DNA of 64,000 bases from a virus. Lineage: Duplodnaviria; Caudoviricetes. This document shows, piece by piece, positions 34 to 49,893 of the stretch (the first letter of the stretch is position 1; each line of letters starts with the position of its first letter). The position numbers and the translations under genes were made by a program. The stretch covers positions 22,980 through 86,979 of IMG/VR virus record IMGVR_UViG_3300030376_006980; one strand, written 5' to 3'. The notes under the pieces were generated by a model. It was not told the origin of the DNA. It was given only the letters and a program-made list of their open reading frames with translations, and did not search any database.

Positions 34-107
34 GGGGAATTAGCTCAGCTGGCTAGAGCGCCTGCCTTGCACGCAGGAGGTCATCGGTTCGACTCCGATA
101 TTCTCCA
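34..107 (+). tRNA. tRNA-Ala(UGC), CCA not encoded
   Basis: Full cloverleaf: acceptor GGGGAAT/ATTCTCC with G3.U70, D-stem GCTC/GAGC, anticodon stem CCTGC/GCAGG with loop CT-TGC-AC, T-arm ATCGG-TTCGACT-CCGAT. Confidence 0.95.
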
Positions 108-119
108 CAAAAAATAAAC

Positions 120-6803: not shown

Positions 6804-8615
6804 GTGTTGAAATATCTAAAACTTTTTGAAGAATTCATAACAGAGAAGAAACCTAAGGGAGCTCCTGACTTCCACCATTCTGATGCACCTGATGCTGAAG
6901 GTCGCTTTAGAGATTTAAGTCCTAAGAAATTAGCCGCATGGTTAATTAAAACCAGAAAGAAAGACTTAAAAAGAATTAGCGGTTCTTTAACTCAACAAGT
7001 AGTATTTAATAGAAAGAGTGATCCTAAATATGCTGATAAGATGGAAAAGACCAGAATTGAAGTATATAAGCAATTAGGTAGAGATGATTTATTAAATAAA
7101 GATGAATCAGTACAATTTGTAAATGAAGGAATTGACTTCCAGGCTATTTTACTAAAAGATGCAATGTTAAAGTATAACATTCAACCAACTGGTGGAATTC
7201 CACGTACATTACAGTTTGCTGGTAAAGGTTATATGAAAGCTCCTAAAGGTACATTCTTAATTGGTTTACCTGGTGGTCTATTTGCCGTTAATCTGAAAAA
7301 GAAATTTGCTGTTCAACTCACAAGCGGAAGTAGAGCTTACTTAGATGCTCAAGATAAGTTAAAAGATAATGAGGTTGGAGGAACTAATATGGCTCCTGAA
7401 TATAGAGAATGGAAAAAGTACCTAAATGAATCAGTAGTTACTGAAGGTAAACTAAAAATATCTGGACCTGCTTACGATCTTTGGGATGAGAAAGAAGTCC
7501 AAAGAAAATTAAGAGGCGTTAAGATAAAGATAGTTGGAGATATTGGAGGTGTTGCAACAATTAAAGGTGACGATAAAGAACTACAAAAAGTTAAAGACAT
7601 ATTAGGTTTAAATGAAGCAGCTGAACATGAAGATTATTTAAACAAAGTTAATTTTTTACTAGCAGGAGAAAAATTAGAAGGTCTTACTGGAAAAAATAAT
7701 AAAAGAATTTATGGTGAAATAAACGATGTTTGTTTAGAAAAGCTATATAATTCATTTTATGCAAAAGGTGATTATGGAAAAGTATTAGAAGTTAATTCTG
7801 ATTTACCTCTTATTTATTATGGTGGAAATTCTAAAGAAGGATTAGATTTTATAAAGAGATATAACATATCTGAAAATGTTATGTATAATTCACCAAAGGC
7901 AATGAAGGTGAGCGGTAATAAAAGTAAGTTTTATAAAATGTTTGAGGATACTGATTTTATTCCAAAGGCTGTTTATAAAAAAGAAGATGCAAAAGATTTA
8001 CAATTTCCTGTAATTGCAAAACCTGATGATGGTCATTCAGGTTTAGGTATTGAGATATTTGATACTTATGAAGACTTAGAAAAAAGTAAAGGTAAATTTG
8101 AAAATTATTCAGAGGCAAAGGATTTAGATAAAGAATTCAGAGTTTTGTTAATGAATGAAGAACCTGTGTTAGTTCATGAAAGAGTTTCTTTAAATGAAAA
8201 TGAAATTAAAGATAAAGATGCAGATGAGCAAACTGAATTTACCTATGTAGATCAAGATATGAATAAATTAGATTTTATGAATGAAGTAAATAACATTTGT
8301 AAAACTATTAGAGAAAAATTAAAACTTGGTCTTTGGTCAATCGACTTAATGATTGATAAGAGTGGTAATTGTTGGGTTGCAGAAATTAACTCAGCATCAG
8401 GAATGGCCGCTGATAAGATGGCAAGAGTTTATGTCAAAGTATATGAAGATTTTTATGGTAAGGAATTACCACAAGAATTTAAAACCTATTTAAATGAAGA
8501 ATACATACAACCTATTTACAAAATTAATTTGAAGGAAAATGCAGCTCAAATTAAAAAATCTAAATGCTGCGTTAACTATCAAAATATCATTGATGGTAAA
8601 GAATTTATTCTCTAA
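6804..8615 (+). CDS. putative head-packaged polyprotein with C-terminal RimK-like ATP-grasp ligase
   Basis: N-terminus KYLKLFEEFITE (capsid-targeting-like); internal VNE, LNE and VTE sites; C-terminal NKSKFY, FPVIAKPDDGHSGLGI, EFRV, IDLMID, WVAEINSASG. Confidence 0.75.
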   Translation: MLKYLKLFEEFITEKKPKGAPDFHHSDAPDAEGRFRDLSPKKLAAWLIKTRKKDLKRISGSLTQQVVFNRKSDPKYADKMEKTRIEVYKQLGRDDLLNKDESVQFVNEGIDFQAILLKDAMLKYNIQPTGGIPRTLQFAGKGYMKAPKGTFLIGLPGGLFAVNLKKKFAVQLTSGSRAYLDAQDKLKDNEVGGTNMAPEYREWKKYLNESVVTEGKLKISGPAYDLWDEKEVQRKLRGVKIKIVGDIGGVATIKGDDKELQKVKDILGLNEAAEHEDYLNKVNFLLAGEKLEGLTGKNNKRIYGEINDVCLEKLYNSFYAKGDYGKVLEVNSDLPLIYYGGNSKEGLDFIKRYNISENVMYNSPKAMKVSGNKSKFYKMFEDTDFIPKAVYKKEDAKDLQFPVIAKPDDGHSGLGIEIFDTYEDLEKSKGKFENYSEAKDLDKEFRVLLMNEEPVLVHERVSLNENEIKDKDADEQTEFTYVDQDMNKLDFMNEVNNICKTIREKLKLGLWSIDLMIDKSGNCWVAEINSASGMAADKMARVYVKVYEDFYGKELPQEFKTYLNEEYIQPIYKINLKENAAQIKKSKCCVNYQNIIDGKEFIL

Positions 8616-12805: not shown

Positions 12806-12832
12806 TTGAATATATAAAAAAAATCAAATTCA

Positions 12833-13129
12833 ATGTTTATTAAAAACTACAGTGAATTCCTTTTAGAAGTTAGAGATAAAAAACCTAAAGTAGCAGGAGA
12901 AAAGACTGAAAAAGATCATAAGGATGGAAATCACAAAGGAGTTGACAAAGAATTAGAGAAAAAAGTAAACGATGAACTGGAAGCCGTTGAAGAAGAATGT
13001 GTCCGATGCGGAGAGCATATCGAGTCTTGTAAATGTGAGGAGGAGGACCCATGGTCAACTCAAAATTATCACAGAGTTCCAAAAGGAAAAGAACAGACAG
13101 CAAAACCAAAACAAGAATTTAAAAAGTAA
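12833..13129 (+). CDS. small protein with capsid-targeting-like N-terminus and Cys cluster
   Basis: MFIKNYSEFLLE; CVRC...CKC. Confidence 0.7.
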   Translation: MFIKNYSEFLLEVRDKKPKVAGEKTEKDHKDGNHKGVDKELEKKVNDELEAVEEECVRCGEHIESCKCEEEDPWSTQNYHRVPKGKEQTAKPKQEFKK

Positions 13130-13133
13130 TAAA

Positions 13134-13421
13134 ATGAATAAATTTGACCAATTTTTTGCAAAACATGGAATTAAAATAATAATAGTATTATTGTTATTAA
13201 CTTATTTTAAATCATGTAGTGTTGATTCTGAAGTAGAAAGAATCAAAAAAGAACAAAGAACATTAACTAATGAGATTGATACATTATCTTCTCAAATAGT
13301 AAATGAGGAGGAAATGATTTTCTTAATTAAAACAGTTCCTGCTTGGAAAACTCTAAGAATTGAAGAAATTTCTGATAAAGAAAGAATTTCTATTAATGCC
13401 TTAGAAGAAAAAGAAGATTAA
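13134..13421 (+). CDS. membrane-anchored coiled-coil protein (start corrected to 13134)
   Basis: MNKFDQFFAKHG, a TM segment ending in Cys, then a coiled coil. Confidence 0.65.
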   Translation: MNKFDQFFAKHGIKIIIVLLLLTYFKSCSVDSEVERIKKEQRTLTNEIDTLSSQIVNEEEMIFLIKTVPAWKTLRIEEISDKERISINALEEKED

Positions 13422-16966: not shown

Positions 16967-17191
16967 ATGTGGAACATTTTTAAAGATGATAACAACTGGA
17001 ATGAAAAGGCGATAGTTGGTTTTATTGCCTTTTTAGTAATGTGTCTTATTATGATAGCTGACTTGGTAACAGGTTGGTTTGGAAAGGACTTAGTGATTAA
17101 TGAGTTTGTTTATGATTCATTTACATTAGTAGTTCTTGGCTGCTTTGGTATAGCAGGATTAGAAAAATTTGCAGGAAAGAAAAAAGAATGA
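16967..17191 (+). CDS. two-TM membrane protein, holin candidate
   Basis: Two TM helices and a basic C-terminus; adjacent to the endolysin. Confidence 0.6.
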   Translation: MWNIFKDDNNWNEKAIVGFIAFLVMCLIMIADLVTGWFGKDLVINEFVYDSFTLVVLGCFGIAGLEKFAGKKKE

Positions 17192-17556
17192 TACATTTTC
17201 TAACTTACAAAGATTTTTTAGTTGAAGCTGATAAAAGAATAGCTCGTAAAGAAGGACAGCCAGCAGGATCTGATAAACATTCTGATTTATATACAGATGA
17301 AGATCCTAAAGGCACAATTCATGGTTTAGGTTTTAAAGATGCTGAAACGGCAAATAAAAGTATTGATATAATTAAAAAGGCAAAAAGAACTCATGCTCAT
17401 AAAGTACAAGCAACACTTGTAATGCAGCAAAGAGGAAAGGTTGCTATTGAAAGGACTAAAGATCCTGAAAAGAAAAAGAATCTCAAAGCTGCTAATAAAA
17501 TATGGACTGCATTTTTAGAAGAAATGAAAAAGAAAACAAAAGAAAGAAATGGATAA
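17188..17556 (+). CDS. conserved viral hypothetical protein with capsid-targeting-like N-terminus
   Basis: MIHFLTYKDFLVE; HSDLYTDEDPKGTIHGLGFKD. Confidence 0.7.
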   Translation: MIHFLTYKDFLVEADKRIARKEGQPAGSDKHSDLYTDEDPKGTIHGLGFKDAETANKSIDIIKKAKRTHAHKVQATLVMQQRGKVAIERTKDPEKKKNLKAANKIWTAFLEEMKKKTKERNG

Positions 17557-22538: not shown

Positions 22539-24209
22539 ATGAATAATCATAAAATAAGAATAAACTTTTCTCATCATTATACGAGGCATATCTTAGCAGC
22601 ATTAAAAACTACTGGTGCTGATATAGAGCACGATCCTAACATTAAACCAGAATTTATTTATGTTAATGATGAATTGGTTGGTTACATTGCATGGTGGGAC
22701 TCTCTTAAATTTACTCCAGCTAATCTTAAAGATATGGCAGATCATGATTTTAAAATTATTTTTAAGTTTCATTACAGTCCTAATGTTATAGATTATTCAA
22801 TATATGGTAAATATGAAAATAGAATAGTACCTTGTGGATTATGGAGAACCTGGGAGACTGAAGATTCTAATTATAAATGGGATAAGAATAATATACTTAA
22901 TAGACCAAGACCTATTGATCTTACTGCTCAAATGAGACATATTAATACAAGCAAACAATGGTACCCATGGTCTCATGCAAGATTTAAACTTAAAAAGATT
23001 GCAGAGGATATGAATAAGAGAGGATTTAATACTTCTTTTAAAATGATAGGTAGAAAAAATTATGAGAAAAGATTATTAGATACTAATGCAGCTTTTATTT
23101 GGAGTGCTACATCATACTTAGGTTGGAAAGTATGTGAATTTTTAGAACAAGGTGTTATAATGATAACAGAGCCATTAGGTAAGGATTATCCATTATGTAA
23201 TGATGTTGTATTAGAAGATAATGTTCATTGTGTATTTTGTGATGATCCTAATAAATTTGAAGACACTGTTAAAAAACTATTAGCAGATCCTCAGAGAATT
23301 AGAAGAATAAGAAAAAATATTTTGCATCTGTGGGAAACTAAATTAACACAAAAGCACGTAGGAAAATGGTATTTAGAAAAAATAATAAAAACTTACGAAG
23401 AAATGAAACCAAAAGAAAGCATAAATGTTTCTTGGTGGAATAAAGATGGAAAAAACTGGGGTGATGCTCTTAATCCTGTTTTAGCAAAACATATTTCAGG
23501 TAAAAATATTAATTGGATAAAAACCGGTGAAAAGAGTAATGAACAAAGATATTATTGTATAGGAAGTATATTACAATCATCTATGTCTGAAGGGAGTGAA
23601 ATATGGGGTACAGGTTTAATGAGATATGAACATAAATTAAAAGTTAAACCTAAAAAAATTCATGCAGTAAGAGGACCTTTAACTAGAGATAGTTTAATTA
23701 AACAAGGATTTGATTGTCCTGAAGTTTATGGAGACCCTGCTTTACTTTATCCAAGATTTTACAATCCTAATATTGATAAGAAATATGAATGGGGTATTAT
23801 TCCTCATTACGTAGATAAAAACCATCCTTGGTTAGACAGGTTTAGAAAAATGAAACATGTAAAAATCATTGATATTTTCGATCCTATTAATAAAGTGGTA
23901 GATGAAATAAAAAGTTGTAATAGAATATTGTCCAGTTCTCTACATGGTGTTATTGCTGGAGATGCTTATGGTGTACCTTCTAAGTGGATAGTTCTTGGTG
24001 GAACAATTGGTGGTATGGAAAGATATGAAGGAAAGGTTTCGTGTTTTAAGTTTAGAGATTATTATGCATCAGTTAAAAGGACTGACATTGAACCTATTTT
24101 ATGTACTCCTAACATAAGATTATTAGATATTAAAAAACAATTTGTAGATTATAAAATTGATATTGATTTAGATCTTCTTTATGAATCTTGCCCTTTTAAA
24201 CAATCTTAA
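22539..24209 (+). CDS. GT-B-like domain fused to a second polysaccharide pyruvyltransferase domain
   Basis: N-terminal half resembles glycosyltransferase C-domains (WKVCEFLEQG, VHCVFCD); C-terminal NWGDALN...SSLHG...FKFRDY. Confidence 0.75.
   Translation: MNNHKIRINFSHHYTRHILAALKTTGADIEHDPNIKPEFIYVNDELVGYIAWWDSLKFTPANLKDMADHDFKIIFKFHYSPNVIDYSIYGKYENRIVPCGLWRTWETEDSNYKWDKNNILNRPRPIDLTAQMRHINTSKQWYPWSHARFKLKKIAEDMNKRGFNTSFKMIGRKNYEKRLLDTNAAFIWSATSYLGWKVCEFLEQGVIMITEPLGKDYPLCNDVVLEDNVHCVFCDDPNKFEDTVKKLLADPQRIRRIRKNILHLWETKLTQKHVGKWYLEKIIKTYEEMKPKESINVSWWNKDGKNWGDALNPVLAKHISGKNINWIKTGEKSNEQRYYCIGSILQSSMSEGSEIWGTGLMRYEHKLKVKPKKIHAVRGPLTRDSLIKQGFDCPEVYGDPALLYPRFYNPNIDKKYEWGIIPHYVDKNHPWLDRFRKMKHVKIIDIFDPINKVVDEIKSCNRILSSSLHGVIAGDAYGVPSKWIVLGGTIGGMERYEGKVSCFKFRDYYASVKRTDIEPILCTPNIRLLDIKKQFVDYKIDIDLDLLYESCPFKQS
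23703..23758 (+). repeat. 56-nt exact repeat, copy 2
   Basis: Identical to 22050-22105. Confidence 0.9.
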
Positions 24210-28825: not shown

Positions 28826-29074
28826 ATGGGATTCCACAAAAGACATATTGATAACGAACAAGTTTTAAGGCTTTATGAAGATGGTGGAATTAATAGAATA
28901 CGTGATTGGTACACAAAAGGTGTAGATGCATTAATAACAGAAACCGGCCTGGCTTCACGGGTCGGTCATGTTATTTCAGACGATGAATGGACTCAAATGG
29001 GCACAGTTCGACAAGACGAGGAAATATTCAAATTAATTAGAGAAGAATACGGAACTCCTGTAGTTAAAAAATAA
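28826..29074 (+). CDS. hypothetical protein
   Basis: MGFHKRHI...; 82 aa. Confidence 0.65.
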   Translation: MGFHKRHIDNEQVLRLYEDGGINRIRDWYTKGVDALITETGLASRVGHVISDDEWTQMGTVRQDEEIFKLIREEYGTPVVKK

Positions 29075-29116
29075 CTTCTTCCTTGTTGAATAAATAAAGA
29101 AAACAAACTATTTAAC

Positions 29117-30178
29117 ATGGAACATATTAAAGACTATAAATTATTTAAAGAGTCTCTACAAACCGATTTAATTACTGAAAGATTTAGTTCATCTATTCTT
29201 AGAGATTTTGCTTCTCAAGATGGATTAAAATCAAGATGGAGAGGTAACTTAGCAAAGGATATGCAAAAATTTGCTAACCTTGCTATTGATAAAATTTCAG
29301 ATGCAGATTTTACTACAACCACACCAGCAGCTTATTGGAAAGGCCCTGATGCTAAAGATCCTAACAAAGTAGGATTCTTTGTTGATGATGACAAAAATTT
29401 CATTAAGTGGGCAAAGGCAAACAAAAAATATTTACCAGGTTCATTAGATTTAAATAACATTTCTAAATATGGAGTGGTACTTTCTGTTGTTAGAGGTGGT
29501 GTTGGTATGTGGTCTGGTTTCCAAATGGATAGAGGATCAACTTACAGCAGACATAGAAAAGGTGCAGATGATAGATATGGAGTTCTTGCAAAAGATTATG
29601 AAACCAGTTCTTTATATAAGGGATGGGACGGTGCTCCTGCTGCTAAAGTAACAAGAAAGAATCTTATTGATGCCGCAACTCGTGTATATGTTTTAGATTT
29701 AAATAGTTTAAGAGACAAATACGATGTAAGTGGATTAAAATCAGATCGTGCAAATTCTAAAGCTGGTGCAACTGCCTTAAAAACTGCTAAAGAGATTAAA
29801 GATGAAAACCGTAAAAGGTATACTGCTATCTTACAAGATAAAGCAGCAATGACTGATATTGATAAAGCCGTTAGAGATTCAATTGAATTATTAAACACTC
29901 ATATCTCTGATGCTTTAGATAAAGGTGAAATGGATCAATTTGGAAACTTTGTTATTGGCAAAAGTCCTAGAGGTAGATCTGTATCAATTAAAGACGGTGC
30001 AGGTGCTATCAGAAATATGTTAGATGACTACCAAAGATATAAGGATTATGAAAGGCAAGATAAAGAAGCAAAGGCTGAAGGTAGAGAAGATAACTATTAT
30101 GCAAGAGAAGTAAAGGCTTATGCTAAAAGACTTACTGATTATGCTAAGAAAGTAAAGGATAAAAATTACGGCTGGTAA
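29117..30178 (+). CDS. putative head internal protein
   Basis: MEHIKDYKLFKES...LITE propeptide-like N-terminus; preceded by GAATAAATAA. Confidence 0.7.
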   Translation: MEHIKDYKLFKESLQTDLITERFSSSILRDFASQDGLKSRWRGNLAKDMQKFANLAIDKISDADFTTTTPAAYWKGPDAKDPNKVGFFVDDDKNFIKWAKANKKYLPGSLDLNNISKYGVVLSVVRGGVGMWSGFQMDRGSTYSRHRKGADDRYGVLAKDYETSSLYKGWDGAPAAKVTRKNLIDAATRVYVLDLNSLRDKYDVSGLKSDRANSKAGATALKTAKEIKDENRKRYTAILQDKAAMTDIDKAVRDSIELLNTHISDALDKGEMDQFGNFVIGKSPRGRSVSIKDGAGAIRNMLDDYQRYKDYERQDKEAKAEGREDNYYAREVKAYAKRLTDYAKKVKDKNYGW

Positions 30179-30180
30179 TT

Positions 30181-31683
30181 ATGAAATATATTAGAGGAAT
30201 AAATGAAGCTTTCATTGGCCCTTTTGTTTTTAGTGAAAGAATGTCCGATGATGAATTAAAAGGAATGTATAATGCAGCTATTGATGGTTACTCTTATCAT
30301 CAAAAAGGTATGCAATATTCTAAGTCAGATTACAAGAAAGCATATATGGCTATTGAAAAGATCTTAAAGAAAAGGGGAATTAAGGTAGATGAAGGCAGGA
30401 GAATTGATGAAGCTTTGCTTGAAAATGCAGTTAGAGATCTACATTTTGAAACAGATCCTAAAAAAGCAGAAGAAATGAAAATAGCTATCGGTGCATCTCA
30501 AGGAGAAGTTATAAGGCGTAAACAAATTGAAGGCGGTAATTATTCATTAAGAAGATTTAGAAAAGAGATTAAATATGATAAGACTGGTAAAGATCTTGGT
30601 GTATTTAAACCTGGCAGTTATATGGCTGCTACTTCTAAATTAGGTGATGGCCCTCACAAGAAAGCTGTTGCTAAAGTAAAATGGAATAGAAAGAAATATG
30701 ACCAATGGTTAAAAGATGTCGCGTCAAACGATGGTTGGAGAAATGCTTATGACATGGCGCAAAATGCTAAACACGAACCAGGTCTATTACAATGGGCTAA
30801 AAAAGAATTTAGAGGTGAAGATGTAATGCAAAGAATTCAATGGGATATTGAAGCATTTGCAGAATCTGTAGTTAACGAAAAGAACTTTATTAAAAAATAT
30901 ACAGAATTTTTATTAGAAAAGAAAAAGGAAAAAGAATCCTTTGAAGATAAAATTGAAGGTGATGGATACTATAAAGGTATATCTACATCAACCGCTCGCC
31001 AAAAGGTGGATCAAATGAAAAAGCAATCTCAGATGTCTGATGATGATCCAGATGCTTATAAAGAAATGCCAGGTGATACTAAAGGTAAAAAACTTTTAAA
31101 GAAATCTAAACACACTAAAGCATTTGATGATTTATATGCTGATGAAGCCTTAGAAGAAATGGTTACTAATGAAAGTGTAATGAGTGAATTACATGTAATG
31201 ATGGAGGAGGCTAAAAACTTTAATCAGTTTAGAAAAATGTTTTATGAAGAGTTTAGTGATAAAGTTAAACCTAATAAAGATATGGATTCTTGGTTAAAAT
31301 CATTATATGAAGAAGGTTTAGGTGAAAGTCTTGAAGAAAAGGCAGGTGGAGATAGAAGTCCTATTAAAGGAAAAGGAATAGAGACAGGCCTTAAAAAGAA
31401 ATCAGAACAAACAGGTGTATCATTACCATTATTAAGATTAGTAATGAGGAGAGGTATGGCTGCATGGAAAAGTGGACATAGACCTGGTGCTGGGCAAGAA
31501 CAATGGGGTTATGCTAGAGTTAATTCATTTTTAACTAAAGCTCCTGGTACTTGGGGAAGACCATTAGATAATCCTAAAAAGAATGGACCTAAAGGAAAAT
31601 TTGGAGCTGATGCTGATATTGCTAAAGAAGTAATTAAAAAAGGCGAGGATAAGAAATTAAAAACAACAGGCTTACCTAAGTAA
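30181..31683 (+). CDS. putative head internal polyprotein
   Basis: MKYIRGINE; internal second leader VVNEKNFIKKYTEFLLE; C-terminal RRGMAAWKSGHRPG...WGYARVNSFL viral domain. Confidence 0.7.
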   Translation: MKYIRGINEAFIGPFVFSERMSDDELKGMYNAAIDGYSYHQKGMQYSKSDYKKAYMAIEKILKKRGIKVDEGRRIDEALLENAVRDLHFETDPKKAEEMKIAIGASQGEVIRRKQIEGGNYSLRRFRKEIKYDKTGKDLGVFKPGSYMAATSKLGDGPHKKAVAKVKWNRKKYDQWLKDVASNDGWRNAYDMAQNAKHEPGLLQWAKKEFRGEDVMQRIQWDIEAFAESVVNEKNFIKKYTEFLLEKKKEKESFEDKIEGDGYYKGISTSTARQKVDQMKKQSQMSDDDPDAYKEMPGDTKGKKLLKKSKHTKAFDDLYADEALEEMVTNESVMSELHVMMEEAKNFNQFRKMFYEEFSDKVKPNKDMDSWLKSLYEEGLGESLEEKAGGDRSPIKGKGIETGLKKKSEQTGVSLPLLRLVMRRGMAAWKSGHRPGAGQEQWGYARVNSFLTKAPGTWGRPLDNPKKNGPKGKFGADADIAKEVIKKGEDKKLKTTGLPK

Positions 31684-32228
31684 TGAAATTTATAAAAGGC
31701 TTTAAGGATTTTAAAAATGTATCTGAAGAATTAAAATATCATGTGGATAATGGTATAGGTTTAGATGATACTGTTTTTCGTTTAGGATCTGATGCTCATA
31801 GTAAACTTTTTGAAGAAGCTAAACAATATTGGGATGAAGGAAATCTAATATTAAAAGGTAAAAGTGGGTGGATGGCTAAGAACCTTGAAGTAGGTAAGAA
31901 AGCAATTTATAAAGATCGTAAATCAGGTAGAACAAAAGATGTTAAACTTGATTCACCAGAAAGAGGAGGCAACAGAAAGTTTATTGTTTATCGTAATAGT
32001 GGAAGAACTGATAAAGAAACAGGAAAGATAGTTGCTAAGAAAATAGAATGGGGCGATCCTAAATTAGCTGTTAAGAATGATGATCCAGGAAGAGCTGCTA
32101 GTTTTTGGGCAAGACACCAATGTGATCAAAAGAAAAAGATGGATCCTAATAAAGCTGGTTTTTGGGCATGTTATGGGCCAAGTCTATTTGGAAAGCAGTT
32201 AGGATTAAAAAGTACTAATCCTTGGTAA
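31683..32228 (+). CDS. putative head internal protein with conserved basic C-terminal domain
   Basis: MKFIKGFKDFKNVSE; KKIEWGDP...ASFWARHQC...AGFWAC. Confidence 0.7.
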   Translation: MKFIKGFKDFKNVSEELKYHVDNGIGLDDTVFRLGSDAHSKLFEEAKQYWDEGNLILKGKSGWMAKNLEVGKKAIYKDRKSGRTKDVKLDSPERGGNRKFIVYRNSGRTDKETGKIVAKKIEWGDPKLAVKNDDPGRAASFWARHQCDQKKKMDPNKAGFWACYGPSLFGKQLGLKSTNPW

Positions 32229-32256
32229 ATAAATAATAAAATAAAAATAATAAACA

Positions 32257-33285
32257 ATGGCATACGGAGAAGATTATTCTAGGAGCGCATCTGAGCCTAC
32301 TTCTGAACAAAGTACTAGGAGTTTTAGAAAAATGTTCAATAAACAAGGTGATACTCTAGGTTGGGTAGCTGGAAAGGATGTACCTATATATTATACATCA
32401 GACCTACCGAATGGTCAACAAAATGGTTATTCTGTAGATAGTGGTTATTGTGAGTGGAGTAACGGAAATAGGATTTATATAGGTGATACTTATAGTAGCG
32501 GTACTCAACCAGCTGGGCTTAATGATGGAGCATCTTCAAGATATTGTTATCAATGGACAAGAATAGGTGGTGTAGTAACTGGTTCAGGAAGGGTACAGTT
32601 AGGTGTTAACGGTGGAACAACCGGTACTTCCGCAACATGGTTAAAATTTGGAGGGAATACCACTTCTTCATTAGCTAATGAAGCTTTAATAACAAGTTAT
32701 GATATAGGTGAAGGTGATAAAAACTCCAATGCTTATTGTGTAGCAACTATTCCATTACCTGTTTATTATCAAACAAATGAAAATATACAATCCGGTATTG
32801 CTCTAAACCCACCAATGGCTAGTAGAGCCGATACTACAGCTGGAATCCAAAACTCTCTTCAAGCAAACGCCCTCCAGGGAGTAAAAAAGGATTTTAATGA
32901 TGATTATATAGGTGGGTCAGGTACTGTGGTCGGTTTATGGTATAATACAATTGGAGATGAAGGGTTTGACTTTAGGCCAATATTTCCGGATGGAACTGTT
33001 ACTAGTGCTATAGATCCTCCAATAGCAAATGTTACTGGTATGGTACATTTTGGCTATAATACTTTTTGGTATGAACACAGTTTGAATAACAACTATCCTG
33101 CAAGATATATGAATATAATAGTTAAAGCTGTACAAACGCCAAATGGAAGTGATGGTGGCCTAAGAAATTATGTCCCAAGTAGTTCATATACGGGGAATCA
33201 ATATAGAAATATATTGCCGCCAATGTATCATTTTACATTTAGTTATGTATTAGGTGGGTATGAAGCAACTGAGACTCTCGGTTAA
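32257..33285 (+). CDS. Gly/Thr/Asn-rich protein, probably virion structural
   Basis: Composition differs from neighbours (low Lys, beta-rich); preceded by TAAATAAATAA. Confidence 0.6.
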   Translation: MAYGEDYSRSASEPTSEQSTRSFRKMFNKQGDTLGWVAGKDVPIYYTSDLPNGQQNGYSVDSGYCEWSNGNRIYIGDTYSSGTQPAGLNDGASSRYCYQWTRIGGVVTGSGRVQLGVNGGTTGTSATWLKFGGNTTSSLANEALITSYDIGEGDKNSNAYCVATIPLPVYYQTNENIQSGIALNPPMASRADTTAGIQNSLQANALQGVKKDFNDDYIGGSGTVVGLWYNTIGDEGFDFRPIFPDGTVTSAIDPPIANVTGMVHFGYNTFWYEHSLNNNYPARYMNIIVKAVQTPNGSDGGLRNYVPSSSYTGNQYRNILPPMYHFTFSYVLGGYEATETLG

Positions 33286-33299
33286 AAATAAAAGAAGTA

Positions 33300-34994
33300 A
33301 TGAAAAATTTAAAAAGAATAGATGAAGCAGTAGGTTCTATCGAAGAAAGAAGAGTTGCTGCTGATAGATTACTTAAAGATGTTGTAAAAGGATCTACCTC
33401 ATCAGTAGAGGGTATTAAATTATCTAAAGAAATGGCTCAAGCATTTTTAGATTGGCAAAGAATGTCTACTTATGGAAAGAAATTCGGTAAGTTACCTTTT
33501 TACATGTTATTCACTGCTGCTTTTAATTGGGGATTGGACAGATACATTGGTAAAGATAAAAAGATTAAAGACGAGTATAAAGAACTTAAGGCTAAGGCTA
33601 AAGAAATGAGTAAGCAGCAAAAAATGAAAGGGGAATCAGTAAACGAAATGTCATTAGGGCATGCAGAGGTAAAAAAAGTAGTAAAAGATTTATCTCGAAA
33701 TCAAAAAATAGCACTTGAAAGAGCTATTAAAGACGGAACAATAAAAACATCTGAAGATTTAAGTAATTGGGCAAAATCTATTCATGAATCACTTAATGAA
33801 GAGGAAACTCTTATATACGATGAATTAGGTACTGAATTACAAAGCATAGAGGATAAGATTAATGATTTAGCTGCTTCTGCTGCCGATCCTAAATGGGCAC
33901 GTGCATTAGATAGTATAGGAAGTCAGTTAGATAAATTAATGATGACAATCAATAAGCATGACAGAAAACTTGGTGCTATTGAGTTAAATGAATCTGATGA
34001 AATAAATGAAGCATCTGCTAAAAATGTTTTAAAAGATGCTGTAAATGCATTAACCAAAACATTTGCTGGAAAGAAATTAGATAAATCTTATGTTAAAGAT
34101 TATTTAGCATCAATGGAGAGAATGGCTAAAAAGAAGCCTATGGACTTTGTAAAAGATTATATGAACTTTTCAAATGATGATTGGATAGAAGATGTAGAAT
34201 ATAACATGGCTAATGAAAAAGTCAATGAAGCTAGATTTGTTAAGTCATATGATACTAAAGTAAATGATGCTGAAACAGAAAAAGAAGTTTTAAAAATATA
34301 TCCAAAGGCTAAATTCTTTGTTGGTAAAATGAGTCATTTCTTTGGAGAACTTGAACCTAATCTTTTCTTTAAAGCTTATTATCCTAAATACTATAAACAA
34401 GATACAGGTAAATCTATTAAAGGTGATTTTAAAATTACTTCAGTATATTCTCAAAAAGGAAGTAAGTATGTAGAATTAATGAAAGAATCTATTAATGAAG
34501 CTAAATTTAGTTTTTCTGAAGATGAAGTAAAGGATGTTGCTGAATTGATAGCAAAAGCAATTGCAAAATTAGATAAAACTAAAACAGCAGTACATGATAT
34601 GGATTATGTTGCAGGCCGTGGTGCTGGATTTGAAGTATCAATGGACGGTGAGAAATATGAAGGTGGAAGTTATGTTGTAAGACCTAACGGTGATGTTGTT
34701 AATGCTGCTATCGGTAATTCATTTCCTAATGCTATATATGCAAAGATAGGAGATAAGGATATTAAAAAAGTTATGAAGAACATTAAAAAGTTTGAATCTG
34801 TTGAAATAAATGAAGCTGCACCTAAAATGAAAAAGAGTAAAGAAGTAGGAGAATTAGAAAAGCTAAGAATGTTAGTAATTAATTCTAAGAAAGGTGGAGC
34901 TGGTAATAGATACGGTAAAGAATTTGATAAAGAAAAAAATAAAGCTGTCGTTGCTTTGGATAATATGATAAGCTACGCAAAAATAGGAATATAA
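33300..34994 (+). CDS. putative head internal polyprotein of about seven modules
   Basis: MKNLKRIDE; repeated SVNE, SLNE, LNE, INE, VNE, INE and INE junctions. Confidence 0.7.
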   Translation: MKNLKRIDEAVGSIEERRVAADRLLKDVVKGSTSSVEGIKLSKEMAQAFLDWQRMSTYGKKFGKLPFYMLFTAAFNWGLDRYIGKDKKIKDEYKELKAKAKEMSKQQKMKGESVNEMSLGHAEVKKVVKDLSRNQKIALERAIKDGTIKTSEDLSNWAKSIHESLNEEETLIYDELGTELQSIEDKINDLAASAADPKWARALDSIGSQLDKLMMTINKHDRKLGAIELNESDEINEASAKNVLKDAVNALTKTFAGKKLDKSYVKDYLASMERMAKKKPMDFVKDYMNFSNDDWIEDVEYNMANEKVNEARFVKSYDTKVNDAETEKEVLKIYPKAKFFVGKMSHFFGELEPNLFFKAYYPKYYKQDTGKSIKGDFKITSVYSQKGSKYVELMKESINEAKFSFSEDEVKDVAELIAKAIAKLDKTKTAVHDMDYVAGRGAGFEVSMDGEKYEGGSYVVRPNGDVVNAAIGNSFPNAIYAKIGDKDIKKVMKNIKKFESVEINEAAPKMKKSKEVGELEKLRMLVINSKKGGAGNRYGKEFDKEKNKAVVALDNMISYAKIGI

Positions 34995-34996
34995 AA

Positions 34997-35338
34997 ATGG
35001 AACATTTTAAAACATACGGTGAATTTATAACTGAAGGCCAATTAAACGAAAAAGATTATTCTACTGAGCAAAGAAAAGAAATGGCAGAAAAAGGATTAGC
35101 TTTACCTGATGGTAGTTTTCCTATTGCTAATGTTCAGGATTTAAAAAATGCTATTTTATCTTATGGCAGATCAAAAGATCATTCAAAAGTTGCTAAGTTT
35201 ATAGCAAAAAGAGCAAAGGCATTAGGTGCTGAAGATCTTATTCCAGATACAGAAGATTTTCAAAAGGCACTTAAAGAAGTTGCTATGAGAGTTCCTGCAA
35301 AAACAATTGCAATTGATTCAGAAGAAGACGAGGACTAA
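34997..35338 (+). CDS. putative head internal protein
   Basis: MEHFKTYGEFITE closely matches the T4 IP leader MKTYQEFIAE; ALPDGSFPI...DLKNAI domain. Confidence 0.75.
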   Translation: MEHFKTYGEFITEGQLNEKDYSTEQRKEMAEKGLALPDGSFPIANVQDLKNAILSYGRSKDHSKVAKFIAKRAKALGAEDLIPDTEDFQKALKEVAMRVPAKTIAIDSEEDED

Positions 35339-35667
35339 TGGCATGTAAATCTTGTAAATGTGGTAAACATGCTCATGATAAGGTTATAGAGCAAATGGAT
35401 GATTTGACTAAACCTTTTACGCAAATTCATACAACAGAAGCAGTCGTAAGACATTTTGATAAATCAGCACCTGATCATTTATATAAATGGCATGCCGATG
35501 ATGAAGATCGTTATGTACAATCTTTAAATGAAAATGATTGGAGCTTTCAATTTGATAATGAATTACCTCAATCAATGGAACCTGACAAAATTATTTATAT
35601 TCCTAAAGGTTTAATACACCGCTTAATTAAAGGTACTTCTGAATTAAGTATTTCTATAAAGTTTTAA
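35338..35667 (+). CDS. cupin-fold protein
   Basis: WHADDEDR...QFDNELP...IYIPKGLIHRLIKG. Confidence 0.65.
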   Translation: MACKSCKCGKHAHDKVIEQMDDLTKPFTQIHTTEAVVRHFDKSAPDHLYKWHADDEDRYVQSLNENDWSFQFDNELPQSMEPDKIIYIPKGLIHRLIKGTSELSISIKF

Positions 35668-35777: not shown

Positions 35778-37805
35778 ATGGGAGAAATTTATCCAGAAGA
35801 AGAACAAGAAAAACAAAGAAAACCTAGATTTAAAAAGCAAACTTTAGTTTTAGATACTTATGGTACTAATTTAAGTAAAAGAGCAATTGAAGGTAAGCTT
35901 GATCCTGTCATCGGTAGAACGGATGAAATTCTTAGGACTATACAAATTTTAGGAAGACGTAGAAAAAACAATCCAGTATTAGTTGGAGAACCTGGTGTTG
36001 GTAAAACTGCTATCGTTGAAGGTTTAGCTTTAAAAATGGTAGAAGGGAATGTTCCTGTATCATTACAAGGTAAAATCATTTATACATTAGAATTATCCAC
36101 AATTGTTGCTGGGACAAAATATCGTGGCCAATTTGAAGAAAGAATGAAATCTATCGTAGATGAATTAATTCTTAATCCACACATCATTGTTTTTATTGAT
36201 GAATTACATACTTTGGTTGGAGCCGGTGGTTCTACGGGATCTTTAGATGCGTCCAATATTATTAAGCCAGCTTTGGCGAGAGGTGAAATCAGATGTATAG
36301 GTGCAACAACATTTGATGAGTTTAGAGAAAACATTGAAGGTGATGGGGCATTGGATAGAAGGTTTCAAAAAGTAACAGTTGAGCCTCCAACATTAGAACA
36401 AACAATTGAAATACTTTCTAATATCAGACATAAGTATGAAGAACACCATAGTGTTTCATATGATGATAATATAATTGATCTTATTGTTAAGTTAGCAGAT
36501 CGCTATGTTATGGATAGATACTTTCCTGATAAAGCTGTTGATATTTTAGATGAAGTAGGATCTTATAAGCATTTAACAAATATGAAAGTTCCTCAAAAGA
36601 TTAAATCTTTAGAAGAAAAATTAGTAGAAAAAGAAAATGCTAAAAGAAAAGCCGTATCACGACAACTTTATGAAGTAGCAGCTAAAGAAAGAGATGCATG
36701 TTTAACACTAAAAGAAAGAATTAAACAAGATCTTGCAATATGGAAAGAACAGATGGCTGTTAATCAATTAGAAATAACTGAAGATGATGTTTTAAAAGTT
36801 GTATCAAAATCAACAGGAGTTCCTATAGAAAAGATATCGGATAAAGAAAACAAAAATCTTTTAGGAATTAATAAGCACTTATCTTCAAGAGTAATAGGCC
36901 AAGATGAAGCAATTGATAAAATTTCTGTAACTGTACAAAGAAACCGAGTAGGAATTAGAAAAAGAAACCGAACAATGGGTAATTTTATTTTCTTAGGTCC
37001 TACTGGTGTTGGTAAAACTCAATTAGCAAAAGAATTAACAGAATATCTTTTTAATAGTGAAGATTCATTAATTAGAGTTGATATGTCTGAATACATGGAA
37101 CCTCATTCTATTTCTAAATTAATCGGAGCTCCTCCGGGATATGTAGGATTTGAAGGTGGTGGGTTTTTAACAGAGCAGGTAAAGAGAAAGCCACACTCAG
37201 TTATATTATTTGACGAGATAGAAAAAGCTCATCCAGAGGTCTTTAATGTATTACTACAAATGTTAGATGATGGACAGTTAACTGATTCATTAGGCAGAAC
37301 TGTTGATTTTAGAAATTGTTTAGTAATACTTACTTCAAATACAGGATCTAGAAAATTACAAGATTTTGGTTCTGGTATAGGATTTGAAAGTTCTTCTAAA
37401 ATGGTTAATCAAGCCGAAGAGGAAAAATCTATTTTAAGAAAGGCTTTAAAGAATAAATTTTCACCAGAATTTTTAAATAGAATTGATGAAATTGTAGTAT
37501 TCAACAGATTAACCGAAGATAATGTAATGGATATTTTAACTAAAGAGTGTAAAGAACTTGCAACTAATTTAGAAGAAGTAGGAGGTTATAATTTTAAAAT
37601 AACTAAAGGAGCTAAAACCTTAATCTTAAATCAGGGATATGATCCTAAGTTTGGAGCAAGGCCATTAAGAAGAACAATTGAAAGAATGATTGAAAATAAA
37701 ATATCTGAGTACATTCTTAAAGGCGAATTAAAAGAAGGTGGTACAATTAATGTAAAAGGTATTAAAGGTGAATTAATAATTGACATAACTAATATAAAAG
37801 AATAA
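35778..37805 (+). CDS. clpC: ClpC-type AAA+ unfoldase lacking the N-terminal domain (start corrected to ATG 35778)
   Basis: [24 protein letters not shown]-like middle domain, [11 protein letters not shown] ClpP-docking loop, GARPLRR. The ORF begins about 25 aa before NBD1. Confidence 0.9.
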
Positions 37806-38473
37806 TGAATTACGGAAAAGAATTTCAAAAATATGCAATGAGTGATCATAATGTAAGTTCATCAACATTGGACTATTATGAAAAACATATTGAGAACTCA
37901 ATGACTCCTTATATTTTAGAGGAGAGGGAAATGAGAGCCACTCAAATTGATATATTTTCAAGATTAATGATGGATAGGTTACTGTGGGTGGCTGGACCAG
38001 TCAATGATAACATGTCTACAATTGTGCAAGCTCAATTAATGTTTTTGGATAGTGTAGAGAAAAAGGATATTACAATGCATATTGATTCTCCAGGAGGTTC
38101 AGTTAAATCAGGACTTTCAATGGTGGATGTTATGGATTATATTAAATCAGATATTAGAACGGTTAATACTGGAATGGCTGCATCTATGGGTTCAGTTCTA
38201 TTAGGAGCAGGGACAAAAGGTAAAAGAAGTTCTTTAAAACATTCTAAAACAATGCTGCATCAATCAAGCGGTGGTTTTAGAGGAAATATACAAGATGCTG
38301 AAATTGATTGGAAAGAATGGCAAAAAGTAAACAAAGAATTGTTTATTCTTTTAGGTAAGTATTGTGGAAAGAAAGCAGATAAAGTAGCAAAAGATGCAAC
38401 AAGAGATTTTTGGATGAATGCTGAAGAAGCTGTTAAGTATGGAATAATCGACGAGGTAATCGGAGCTAAATAA
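37805..38473 (+). CDS. clpP: ATP-dependent Clp protease proteolytic subunit
   Basis: IDSPGGSV, AASMG (Ser), MLHQ (His), RDFW (Asp), YGIIDEV. Confidence 0.95.
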   Translation: MNYGKEFQKYAMSDHNVSSSTLDYYEKHIENSMTPYILEEREMRATQIDIFSRLMMDRLLWVAGPVNDNMSTIVQAQLMFLDSVEKKDITMHIDSPGGSVKSGLSMVDVMDYIKSDIRTVNTGMAASMGSVLLGAGTKGKRSSLKHSKTMLHQSSGGFRGNIQDAEIDWKEWQKVNKELFILLGKYCGKKADKVAKDATRDFWMNAEEAVKYGIIDEVIGAK

Positions 38474-45544: not shown

Positions 45545-46219
45545 ATGAAATACATTAAAAGTTTAAACTTAGAAGAAAAGTTAAAATTAAAAAATCCTAA
45601 TAAGGATGGAGAAGCTGATATAGATTTTGTTGAAGTAAAGCCAGGTGATTTAAAAAAGATGGCTAAGAAATATAAATTAGATGCTGATGAGTATGAGCCA
45701 GGAATGGTAATGCTTAAAGGAAAGAAAAAAGATATTGTAAGTTTCTTAAAAGATCGTGACTATGATATGGCTGATCAAGATATTGAAGACATCTTTCCTG
45801 AATTATTAGAAAACAAAGAAGATTTTGAACCTCATATGATGTATGATCCTAAAACAGGAAAAGGTTATAAAGCTGATACATACGAAGATCATTTAAGAAT
45901 GGACAAAATGGGGTATGTTCATGAAAAACCAGAAAACATCGATGAAGCAAAGAAATTTAAGCCTGGTGATATGTGGTCAGATGATTTTGATTATGAAGGT
46001 ATGTTAAGGTATGGATTAAAGGTAAATGAAAAAACACCTATTAAGATGTTAAACAAATTATTTGATTCTGCAACAGATGTAAATTATCATACACCTTTTA
46101 GAAACTTAGGTATTGCAATTGATTGGATTGAAGATGGTGATAAGAAAGGAGCTAAAGATTACATAAAGAATTTTCATAATGACATCAAAGCTGAAATGAA
46201 AAGTCAAGGACTAAAGTAA
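45545..46219 (+). CDS. putative head internal polyprotein
   Basis: MKYIKSLNLEE; internal LLE and IDE junctions. Confidence 0.65.
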   Translation: MKYIKSLNLEEKLKLKNPNKDGEADIDFVEVKPGDLKKMAKKYKLDADEYEPGMVMLKGKKKDIVSFLKDRDYDMADQDIEDIFPELLENKEDFEPHMMYDPKTGKGYKADTYEDHLRMDKMGYVHEKPENIDEAKKFKPGDMWSDDFDYEGMLRYGLKVNEKTPIKMLNKLFDSATDVNYHTPFRNLGIAIDWIEDGDKKGAKDYIKNFHNDIKAEMKSQGLK

Positions 46220-46222
46220 AAT

Positions 46223-46654
46223 ATGAAGTTTATAAAAACATATAAAGGGTATCATATTAAAGAGGCTGCTATGGCCTGCCCTGCTGCAACACAAGATTTG
46301 AAACTGAATACTAAAAACAGAGACAAATCTATAAAAGCAGATTATATTCAATATGGTCCTCTTAATGTTCAAGAACCTGGTGATTATTGGAAAGATATTG
46401 CAAAATATTGGAATACTTCCGAAGCAGCTGCAAAGAAATCAAATTGTAGTAATTGTGTAGCATTTGATATCTCACCAAGAATGGATGAATGTATGCCTGG
46501 TGTAACTTCCGATGAGGATGGAAGATTAGGTTACTGTTGGATGCATCATTTTAAATGCCATTCAGCAAGAAGCTGTAGAACATGGGCAAAAGGTGGACCA
46601 ATAACAGAAGATAAAGTATCTTATGAGTGGCAAGAAAGAAACTCTAAAAAATAA
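46223..46654 (+). CDS. Cys/His-rich conserved phage protein with capsid-targeting-like leader
   Basis: MKFIKTYKGYHIKE; CPAATQDL, CSNCVAF, GYCWMHHFKCHSARSC. Confidence 0.75.
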   Translation: MKFIKTYKGYHIKEAAMACPAATQDLKLNTKNRDKSIKADYIQYGPLNVQEPGDYWKDIAKYWNTSEAAAKKSNCSNCVAFDISPRMDECMPGVTSDEDGRLGYCWMHHFKCHSARSCRTWAKGGPITEDKVSYEWQERNSKK

Positions 46655-46658
46655 AAAT

Positions 46659-47618
46659 ATGAAACACTTACTTACATTAGAAAAATTCTCTAAACAGTAT
46701 CAACAAAAGATTGATGTTAAAGATTTTAAGAAAATTAAAAAAGGTTCAAAGATCTTATATATGGGTGGCCAAGTTGAGGTAATGGATAATAATGGATATG
46801 TTCTTAAACTCAAAGGAGAAAACGGTAAAACCTTTACAGTAAATAAAAATCAATTTGATCATGGAGGAATGATTAAAGAAGGAGTATTAGATAACATTAC
46901 TTTAATGGCTGATGCATCAAAAAATTATGAAGACTTTAAGAAAAAGTTTAAGAAAGGTTTTCCAAAGATATTTAAATCTACTCCTGATTTTATGGATTGG
47001 TTATACGGAATGTATAAAGACATGGCACCAGACAAAGTAGAAGAAGTTAATGATGGAAAGAAAAAGAAAAAGAAAAAAGAATTCCATCCTGATATGATGT
47101 ATGAATCTAAAGGAAAAAAGGTTGTAAGTGATATTTATAAAGACGGCGGTCAGATTGATTATCTTTCTGATGCTGATGATGACACAAAAAAGATATGGAA
47201 AAAGGCAGGAATTAATCCAGAGGATGATGATATGATTATTCTTTATTCATATGTTAATAACTGGATTCCTACTAAAAAGATTTTAAATAAGTCAAGAATA
47301 AAGTATAAAGAATTAGAAGATCCTAATTCAGCAGGAGAATCTTTTATTGTATTTAATGTTAATGAACTATCATCTCAGCAAGACGGAACCAAAGCATCAG
47401 ACGGTAAACATAAACATGAAGATCATTTAGAAGAAGATCTTGAAGCAATGTGGAAAAAGATTTATGGTGAAGATTTTGTAAAACATTATCCAGCTGTTGC
47501 TAAGATTATCAGACAAAGAAAACTTAAAGATAAAAGAGAAATTGCTAGAATTTGGCAAGATACTTATGGTGAAGATTTTGAAAAAGAATATCCAGCATTA
47601 TACCAAAAACTATCATAA
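46659..47618 (+). CDS. putative head internal polyprotein (start corrected to ATG 46659)
   Basis: MKHLLTLEKF; IKE, VEE, MYE, VNE and LEE junctions; C-terminal W...YGEDF...YPA duplication. Confidence 0.65.
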   Translation: MKHLLTLEKFSKQYQQKIDVKDFKKIKKGSKILYMGGQVEVMDNNGYVLKLKGENGKTFTVNKNQFDHGGMIKEGVLDNITLMADASKNYEDFKKKFKKGFPKIFKSTPDFMDWLYGMYKDMAPDKVEEVNDGKKKKKKKEFHPDMMYESKGKKVVSDIYKDGGQIDYLSDADDDTKKIWKKAGINPEDDDMIILYSYVNNWIPTKKILNKSRIKYKELEDPNSAGESFIVFNVNELSSQQDGTKASDGKHKHEDHLEEDLEAMWKKIYGEDFVKHYPAVAKIIRQRKLKDKREIARIWQDTYGEDFEKEYPALYQKLS

Positions 47619-47944
47619 TGAAATATATTAAACCACTTAATGAAGGAAGACCTATGTTTCAGGATACTCCTAATGAATTTGCATATTTAGATTTTAAAAA
47701 ATGGGCATATAAAAATAGAGGCAAAATTAAAAGAGAACTTTCTAAAATTAATGATGGCACTACATTTTTCATAGCACTTAGAAGAATATGGATGGAATGG
47801 GCAAATAAAGAAGCAAAGGAATGGAGCTATTTACATTCTACTGCTGTGGCTAAAAAAGATTTTGGTAGAGCCTTGGCTACCATGCTAAAAAAGGATGACT
47901 TAATCATCAAAAAACAAGGAAATAAATTAACAGAAATCAAATGA
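47618..47944 (+). CDS. putative head internal protein
   Basis: MKYIKPLNE leader. Confidence 0.65.
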   Translation: MKYIKPLNEGRPMFQDTPNEFAYLDFKKWAYKNRGKIKRELSKINDGTTFFIALRRIWMEWANKEAKEWSYLHSTAVAKKDFGRALATMLKKDDLIIKKQGNKLTEIK

Positions 47945-49323: not shown

Positions 49324-49893
49324 ATGAGTAAGATACATTCATATAACGAATTTAGTAATCAAGAATTGATCAAAGAAACCTATGACATCTTAGAAGGTGA
49401 CGTAAGTATGATGGATCTTGATGAAATGTTAAATGAAGGTATCTTTTCATTTATTAAAGGAATATTTGTAAACCCAGGAAAGAAAAGAGCATTAAGAAAA
49501 TTAGGTGATGAACTTTTTAAAGTTAAGTTGGCTATTCAGAAAGAAGAAATTGAAGAAAATAATATTGATAGATTAGAGGCAGAATTAAAATCTAAAGATC
49601 CTAATTATAAAGCATCAGATCGTATACAAATGGCTCGTGATGCAGATTCAGCTAAACTAAAAGCATTAAAAGGCAAAGAAGAAATCTTTATTGAAAGAAT
49701 GGATGCTATTGGTCAAGAAAATAGTACTTTACAAAAATATGTAAATAAGATAAAACTAGAAGTTAGGATGAAAGCTAATGATGCAACTATTAAAATAGCT
49801 GATGACGAAACAAAAAGGCTCTTAAGTAAAATTAAAGAGAAAGATGCTAAACAAATTAAAAAATTGGATAAGGAATTGGCTAAAGCAGCCTAA
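49324..49893 (+). CDS. coiled-coil protein with capsid-targeting-like leader
   Basis: MSKIHSYNEF...LIKE...MLNE. Confidence 0.65.
   Translation: MSKIHSYNEFSNQELIKETYDILEGDVSMMDLDEMLNEGIFSFIKGIFVNPGKKRALRKLGDELFKVKLAIQKEEIEENNIDRLEAELKSKDPNYKASDRIQMARDADSAKLKALKGKEEIFIERMDAIGQENSTLQKYVNKIKLEVRMKANDATIKIADDETKRLLSKIKEKDAKQIKKLDKELAKAA

Follow-up and report, generated by a model that had tools for sequence, protein, structure and literature searches.

Probable T4-type capsid-targeting leaders and protease-cut joints on a protein family encoded in a 64-kb phage sequence

The DNA analysed here (64,000 nucleotides, positions 22,980 to 86,979 of the IMG/VR record IMGVR_UViG_3300030376_006980; hereafter the window) encodes 13 proteins with a related N-terminal sequence, the leader, which we regard as a probable capsid-targeting propeptide of the kind known from phage T4. 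The window has a guanine plus cytosine (GC) content of 30% and carries nearly every gene on the + strand, including those for topoisomerase II subunits, thymidylate synthases, sugar enzymes, and a ClpA-like ATPase with ClpP. The database sequences closest to it come from uncultured phages of 460-640 kb and from IMG/VR contigs, an exact 45-nucleotide search of IMG/VR returned contigs of the relatives only, and the present data agree with a large uncultured T4-type phage of marine flavobacteria as its source. The relatives used below include G001, a 140-kb contig estimated to be 45% complete, and LR756500, a phage genome of 462 kb. Tenacibaculum phage PTm1 (29.7% GC, flavobacterial host, S77 protease, 325 open reading frames (ORFs)) served as the composition control. 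Genes are named by their start positions in the window.

Leader genes of the window

A preliminary description of this DNA had listed 13 related N-termini, and every one was found in place (Table 1). Their bodies are otherwise unrelated, as had also been claimed: BLAST comparison of the 13 bodies gave zero pairs at E < 0.05. The leader consensus is M-K-[YFH]-[ILF]-K-x-[YF]-x-[ED]-F-[ILV]-x-E, and the leaders in the window span 9-21 residues with I, L or V at P3. In T4, the capsid targeting sequence (CTS) is MKTYQEFIAE (PMC8442874) and the prohead protease gp21 cuts after L/I-x-E (PMC9026906), both as given in the preliminary description; residues 4 and 7 of the CTS serve targeting, residues 8 and 10 serve processing, and Asp at position 10 blocks processing (PMC9026906). 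Five members (6804, 12833, 17188, 34997 and 49324) match this type strongly, with the pattern aromatic-x-x-F-[IL]-x-E. Four (29117, 31683, 46223 and 46659) match it in part, the aromatic pair being present and the cut site later or weaker. The remaining four (30181, 33300, 45545 and 47618) are weak matches that share no more than MK-x-[IL]-K and an [IL]-[ND]-E placed early. One further copy of the leader, the fourteenth, is internal and lies within the 30181 protein. The T4 targeting and processing residues (Y/F, F, I/L, E) are kept in 6804, 12833, 17188, 34997 and the internal copy, and only partly in the remaining members.

Table 1. Leader genes and associated features. Positions are those of the window; a slash marks a predicted cut.
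Feature	Position	Strand	Score or other data
Leader protein, 603 residues: MKYLKLFEEFITE/, KGAPD module, linker modules, C-terminal ATP-grasp	6804..8615	+	12.8 bits
Leader protein, 98 residues: MFIKNYSEFLLE/	12833..13129	+	20.6 bits; G001 ortholog at 83415
Leader protein, 122 residues, basic (isoelectric point (pI) 9.9): MIHFLTYKDFLVE/	17188..17556	+	13.4 bits
Conserved 82-residue gene, left boundary of main cassette	28826..29074	+	same place in L001-L007 and G001
Promoter-like motif GAATAAATAAA ahead of main cassette	29088..29098	+	
First cassette gene, 353 residues: putative 21-residue propeptide MEHIKDYKLFKESLQTDLITE/ and conserved body of unknown fold	29117..30178	+	
Two-part chain, 500 residues: MKYIRGINE/, module, joint ESVVNE/, buried second leader, DUF5824-containing body	30181..31683	+	
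Leader copy inside the 30181 protein (residues 234-246), immediately following VNE/: KNFIKKYTEFLLE/	30880..30918	+	
Leader protein, 181 residues: MKFIKGFKDFKNVSE/, widespread basic body	31683..32228	+	11.8 bits
Leaderless cassette gene, 342 residues, Gly/Ser/Thr/Asn-rich	32257..33285	+	
Multi-module chain, 564 residues: leader MKNLKRIDE/, then about seven modules	33300..34994	+	
Leader protein, 113 residues: MEHFKTYGEFITE/GQLNE/ and 'H module' (GSFPIxxxxDLKNAIxxYGR)	34997..35338	+	
Conserved Cys-rich 109-residue gene, right boundary of main cassette	35338..35667	+	L001-L007, G001 synteny
ClpA-like double AAA+ ATPase after Cys-rich gene	35778-37805		
ClpP after ClpA-like gene	37805-38473		
Weak leader protein, 224 residues: MKYIKSLNLEE/	45545..46219	+	N-terminus
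Leader protein, 143 residues, Cys-rich: MKFIKTYKGYHIKE/A	46223..46654	+	N-terminus
Partial to weak leader protein, 319 residues: MKHLLTLEKFSKQ	46659..47618	+	N-terminus
Short-leader protein, 108 residues, basic (pI 9.9): MKYIKPLNE/G	47618..47944	+	N-terminus
Leader protein, 189 residues: MSKIHSYNEFSNQELIKE/	49324..49893	+	8.0 bits; G001 ortholog starts VKHIKTYEKFQLVEE

Leader statistics

A leader motif was built and scanned over the window and its relatives, as the preliminary description had suggested, and gave N-terminal matches far above chance; the family is found in relatives as well. The statistics were computed on 101 window ORFs, that is, the 13 leader proteins and 88 others. The T4-only pattern [YF].[ED]F[ILV].E has 4 occurrences within the first 16 residues of these ORFs, and 18,688 internal positions yield a single one. 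When 21 leaders from LR756500 were used to train a scoring matrix, it found 4 N-terminal matches of at least 8 bits (12833, 17188, 6804 and 34997) against 0.08 expected (P ~2e-6); additionally, 49324 stands at the printed threshold with 8.0 bits. With the register fixed at residue 1, 31683, 29117 and 46223 are also top-ranked among N-termini. The top internal match in the window is NFIKKYTEFLLE at residue 235 of the 30181 protein (22.9 bits), after ESVVNE. As a control, nine window enzymes with clear Pfam functions lack the leader.

LR756500 itself encodes 21 leader proteins when the pattern is strict and as many as 38 when it is loose, with the consensus MKYIKEYEEF[IL]NE, and G001 has about 14-17 leader genes. 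PTm1 gave chance-level matches only over its 325 ORFs and has no leader family. Since it shares the GC content and host class of the window, base composition is not the explanation. Leader codons differ among members, which points to the peptide as the conserved, selected entity. Nucleotide-level conservation of leaders and joints, as recombination handles, was considered and is ruled out by the varying leader and joint codons.

Among stand-alone homologs of 34997, 84 of 120 have the leader in the same register; many others are fragmentary or consist of several modules. Across the 61 distinct leaders in this family, position 7 is only Y or F, position 10 always F, position 11 only I, L or V and position 13 always E (never D), while position 12 (P2) is free; the pattern by which these leaders were selected allowed wider residue sets at positions 7, 10, 11 and 13. 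In the 29117 family E21 is invariant and Y7 and F10 are nearly invariant over 21 homologs down to 32% identity, and the residues around E21 vary.

Searches of Pfam and PHROGs with the leader proteins returned only ATP-grasp (6804), DUF5824 (30181) and weak unknown families, and no peptidase family. The median pI of the cargo bodies is 8.8 vs 6.7 for other proteins (P = 0.08); a basic cargo charge, as a T4-like trait, was set aside as a weak trend only.

Cut motif and head genes of relatives

The tripeptide [ILV]NE is enriched about 8-fold in the 13 leader proteins (19 observed vs 2.4 expected from composition, P = 2e-11), compared with 18 vs 14.3 expected in the other 88 window proteins. Followed by A, S or G it occurs 11 times in the leader proteins vs 0.4 expected. 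The enrichment persists when the first 22 residues are removed and repeats in G001 (8 vs 1.9).

Two relatives, G001 and G002, share the cassette synteny of the window and carry a T4-type head module, which comprises head-completion, DNA-end-protector and portal genes, a gene for a capsid protein of the gp23 type and one of 576 residues in which an S77 (PF03420) protease is fused to a scaffold. The L002/L098 contig, whose cassette proteins are 92-99% identical to those of the window, has the same S77 protease gene. The capsid protein of the relatives starts with MYAN.LINE/AEVQKTW.P.IE/E.TG.[TS]E/...HNLNE/[SG] in 17 of 17 distinct N-termini, and the scaffold part contains SAINE/S, EQINE/S and PLVNE/S. 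At the end of the G001 head module lies a Lys/Glu/Ala-rich 385-residue gene that starts with MKELVNFEHFRIIKE/. The presence of [ILV]NE in the capsid N-terminus and the scaffold fits the T4 rule for gp21.

Module exchange in the main cassette

The main cassette (29117-35338) is a variable locus with conserved flanks. Seven IMG/VR loci (L001-L007) keep the same order of 82-residue gene, variable cassette, Cys-rich gene and ClpA-like gene, and the cassette differs in every relative. In those loci nearly all cassette genes start with MK[YFH][IFV]K.[YF].[EDN]F..E. The ClpA-like gene follows the cassette in L001-L007 and G001, with ClpP next in the window and L002; no ClpA homolog was found in LR756500.

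Two cassette proteins are chains of several parts. In the 30181 chain, residues 236-500 correspond to a separate leader-headed gene in L002, L003, L004 and L007. The 33300 chain has predicted cuts after residues 116, 167, 231, 237, 310, 400 and 505, all at [ILV]NE and mostly at ES[IVL]NE/A, and its modules are present, missing or reordered in L001, L002, L003 and L004. The 34997 protein stands alone with its own leader in the window and L001, is a C-terminal chain module in L002 and L003, and is an internal one in L004 and L007. Its former leader is still visible in the L002 chain as KESVLE/NFKTFGEFVSE/KYDTEQRKE. When 16 homology boundaries were located, 11 fell within 4 residues of an [ILV]xE site (about 17% estimated by chance). 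Judged from these alignments, modules are fused, separated and rearranged at ES[IVL]NE joints among related phages, and such protease-jointed multi-module chains, which the preliminary description does not mention, are a large part of the system.

The H module of 34997 also occurs in unrelated phages: in high-GC phages it lies inside head proteins adjoining the capsid gene (protease or scaffold, portal-capsid interval). It follows a protease domain in L010 and lies in the protein between the portal and capsid genes in L008. In cultured actinophages of Microbacterium and Gordonia it is found within genes that bear the annotation capsid maturation protease.

An AlphaFold2 model of 29117 has a predicted local distance difference test score (pLDDT) of 68.5 overall and below 50 at residues 1-21; the model had no fold match in the PDB at E <= 0.001, and the ESM Atlas had no match for the protein. 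In another protein, P0193, the N-terminus of the 82-residue flanking gene is fused to a 29117-type body at the junction ..ALITE/. Homologs of 31683 in HTVC008M and phage immuto lack this leader. The pair formed by a DUF5824 protein and then an 'RHxCD' protein is kept from the window (30181-32228) to pelagiphage HTVC008M (L015 2423-4614), where the DUF5824 protein is fused to a cytidylyltransferase with VNE and INE sites between the parts. The leaderless 32257 protein found no counterpart in the cassettes of L001-L004 and L007, nor did it match a protein family.

Leader genes outside the main cassette

The start of 6804 is probably a TTG at 6807, one codon in, which gives MKYLKLFEEFITE; its G001 ortholog starts MKYVKLFEE. 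The ATP-grasp domain is recognized by Pfam and as phrog_2599, residues 2-99 constitute a separate 100-residue leader gene in G001, and the protein has five [ILV]NE sites. The C-terminal part of 45545, from about NIDE/A, is common to L002_19677, whose front differs. The ortholog of 46223 (69% identity) lies in the main cassette of G001, and thus in another leader locus, so the gene moves between leader loci. Translation of 46659 starts at the ORF's second ATG, which comes immediately behind the stop of the preceding gene; its single VNE/ joint lies at residue 236, where the homology to G001_121835 has a boundary. The 12833 gene (98 residues) overlaps a 149-residue ORF in the +1 frame by 157 nucleotides (window 12833-13421), an arrangement also seen in G001 (83415/83599) that could reflect a frameshift or a later start.

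Promoter-like motifs

The 11-mer GAATAAATAAA lies 26 nucleotides upstream of both the G001 cassette and the G001 tail-tube gene. A second motif, ATATATAAA, is positioned 23-37 nucleotides upstream of the portal, protease, three head-module and sheath genes in G001, and at 12810 in the window, 23 nucleotides upstream of 12833. The sequence ATATATAAT lies 22 nucleotides upstream of 6804. Taken as classes, ATATATAA[AT] precedes the leader genes 6804, 12833 and G001 82574, and GAATAAATAAA precedes 29117 and the G001 cassette. A third motif, CATATAAAAATAAA, is found ahead of topoisomerase and other DNA-metabolism genes and never ahead of a leader gene. Several leader genes thus appear to lie behind promoter-like motifs common to head and tail genes.

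Sites of the three motif classes, 11-33 nucleotides upstream of starts, were found at window positions 752, 4003, 5101 and 11428, with further sites at 6782, 12810, 18834, 50130 and 50854, and at 29088 and 44873. The T4 late promoter TATAAATA was tried as well; it has 2 copies only, none of them at a leader gene, and was replaced by the motifs taken from G001 head and tail genes. A long upstream block (..ttcaa..cccaa..gattatatttatactataat..aaaacggaaaa) precedes 42142, 43659, 60451, 60874 and 61844; it could represent another class of promoter or a regulatory cassette that is mobile. Finally, a tRNA-Ala gene (anticodon TGC) lies at the start of the window (34-108).

Discussion

The shared N-terminus is probably a T4-type capsid-targeting propeptide that is removed by an S77 prohead protease. 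The short amphipathic leader would bind the scaffolding core during prohead assembly and thereby carry an otherwise unrelated protein into the head. A T4-type S77 prohead protease would then cut after [ILV]-x-Glu, here most often [ILV]-Asn-Glu. The same cut would remove the leader and, in multi-module proteins, separate the modules joined by ES[IVL]NE. Pieces that stay in the head would probably be delivered with the DNA. The leader family, an enriched joint motif, the exchange of modules at these joints and, in close relatives, an S77 protease are all apparent from sequence; injection of the cargo and its role against host defences we infer.

The preliminary description had proposed a single capsid-addressing signal, and this stands in part. 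It is favoured by the leader statistics, the S77 protease of close relatives, the enrichment of the cut motif, the shuffling of modules, a cargo domain associated with head proteases and the promoter-like motifs common to virion genes, while only about 5 of the 13 members match the T4 type well. Several further points weigh against the capsid-targeting interpretation. Four of the 13 leaders score negative by the LR756500 matrix, and PTm1 has an S77 protease without a leader family, so that possession of the protease does not entail the leader. The leader proteins of LR756500 show no enrichment of internal [ILV]NE; the motif [ILV]xE carries little information, and 33300 and 6804 together give 12 of the 19 [ILV]NE counts. 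The cargo bodies are only weakly more basic than other proteins. The head genes of this phage fall outside the 64 kb, its S77 protease being deduced from relatives, and the promoter assignment is drawn from motif position only.

The strongest alternative accepts targeting and cutting and takes the multi-module chains as expendable core or scaffold filler, chopped and expelled like T4 gp22, gp67 and gp68. We consider it unlikely, with a modest chance of being right. T4 core proteins are indeed cut into multiple fragments that exit the head (PMC9026906), and the modules described here are 50-100 residues long and rich in Lys and Glu. The fusion of the H module to maturation proteases or scaffolds in other phages, and the Lys/Glu/Ala-rich gene at the end of the G001 head module, point the same way. 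However, module content varies between phages that are otherwise 90% identical, which would be unusual for a size-determining scaffold, some members have enzyme or Cys-rich domains (ATP-grasp, DUF5824), and the protease gene already bears a long scaffold part. Some chains could nevertheless be expendable core or scaffold material.

An improbable alternative is that the leader serves not sorting but recognition by an enzyme that modifies the protein, the conserved ATP-grasp ligase for instance, in the manner of peptides whose maturation is leader-guided. ATP-grasp is present in all three genomes with the family (window, G001 and LR756500) and absent from PTm1 and immuto, which lack the family. 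This co-occurrence covers five genomes, however, and is confounded by relatedness; the ATP-grasp protein itself bears a leader, so that it fits better as cargo than as maturase; and the invariant junction E, the ES[IVL]NE joints and the capsid-propeptide motif would all be left unexplained.

It is more doubtful still that the leader is an N-terminal degron for the phage ClpA-like ATPase and ClpP encoded beside the cassette, serving the timed removal of proteins. The proximity of the Clp genes in the window and its relatives invites this idea, but LR756500, with the largest leader family seen, has no ClpA homolog, and a degron would need neither the fixed [ILV]-x-E end nor internal joints. The adjacency is plain synteny; the genes that flank the cassette sit together in immuto with neither cassette nor Clp. 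Hardly credible is an absence of any shared function, the resemblance arising from AT-rich codon bias and first-codon selection for translation initiation in a host that lacks Shine-Dalgarno sites: the codons for K, I, Y, F and N are rich in AT and 4 of the 13 members share little beyond MK-x-I-K, but PTm1 contradicts it, as do a leader copy 234 residues inside a protein and Glu and Phe positions that are invariant over 61 distinct leaders while codons vary.

Returning to the capsid-targeting interpretation, we tentatively suggest, at somewhat less than even confidence, that a widespread clade of marine and giant T4-type phages uses a two-part grammar. A 13-residue loading tag would bring proteins into the head and an ES[IVL]NE cut joint would release them, so that any small gene might be added, fused, divided or rearranged and its product still enter the head and be set free as a separate protein. 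Proteins that travel in a phage head act before any phage gene is expressed, and only a handful are known in T4. Their early action makes them good candidates for proteins directed against host defences. If tag and joint function in the T4 manner, sequence alone could reveal dozens of these proteins in each genome of abundant uncultured phages of ocean and gut, and the joint would show how cargo is gained by simple gene fusion. Under the two-part grammar, a genome would hold dozens of exchangeable proteins that the virion delivers, enzymes such as a RimK-like ATP-grasp among them, and tag and joint would mark candidates for first-minute host takeover or anti-defence in metagenomes. The tag might also serve for loading foreign proteins into capsids of non-coliphages, as the T4 tag already does for T4.

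Comparison with known systems

The system is known in kind: the T4 CTS and its use are established. No paper describing a system of the window type was found. For marine or huge phages, the literature searched contained no account of large families of the CTS type or of chains with protease joints, and no paper in it connects a capsid targeting sequence to phages that are marine, flavobacterial, mega- or huge. No cultured phage with exactly this leader type was found in our searches. The cultured Flavobacterium phage vB_FspM_immuto (immuto; NC_055915; host Flavobacterium sp. LMO8) has a different shared leader, MENFDLKKFLVE/NKLT, on at least 4 proteins. Its tagged genes lie at 1803, 103806, 117631 and 118632, with a further locus at 125241, and one of them is annotated as cobalamin adenosyltransferase. 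Two tagged genes lie just upstream of the terminase, portal, protease and capsid genes, and a 75-residue gene between protease and scaffold starts similarly to the MENFDLKKFLVE leader. The immuto record holds no proteome-based annotation.

Many head proteins of phiKZ, 201phi2-1 and SPN3US are cut after Glu by a protease related to gp21, often multiply, and some are ejected (PMC5694885, PMC9026906). These phiKZ-type phages form a different lineage, and their propeptides (phiKZ, SPN3US) are mostly longer than 100 residues with no single shared short tag, unlike the leaders of the window. The cut motif also differs, being S/A/G-x-E in phiKZ and A-x-E in SPN3US, compared with [ILV]-N-E here. Polyvalent proteins of phages and conjugative elements are strings of unrelated domains that are thought to be packaged, delivered with the DNA and cut into units, and to cut themselves by a zincin-like metallopeptidase domain of their own (PMC5512222). 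Pfam and PHROGs revealed no such domain in the leader proteins, and their joints match the head protease motif instead.

The closest resemblance is to the internal proteins of T4 known as IPI, IPII and IPIII and to Alt, in which a short N-terminal tag on unrelated proteins has aromatic residues three apart followed by I/L-x-E. As with the T4 internal proteins, the lineage has a T4-type S77 protease and head module, and the genes cluster in variable loci. The cargo bodies matched no family annotated as T4 internal protein in Pfam or PHROGs. The window tag is three residues longer at its front (MK-x-I-K) than that of T4 and prefers Asn at P2. T4 has a handful of such proteins, compared with at least 13 in 64 kb here and at least 21 in a relative, and many of those in the window are, unlike the T4 ones, chains of several modules that contain ES[IVL]NE joints and even leaders buried inside them. 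The proposed targeting and cutting also recall the T4 core proteins gp22, gp67 and gp68, which go to the core and undergo cleavage at several L/I-x-E sites. Those three, however, are conserved assembly proteins, whereas chains of the window type vary in their modules between near-identical phages.

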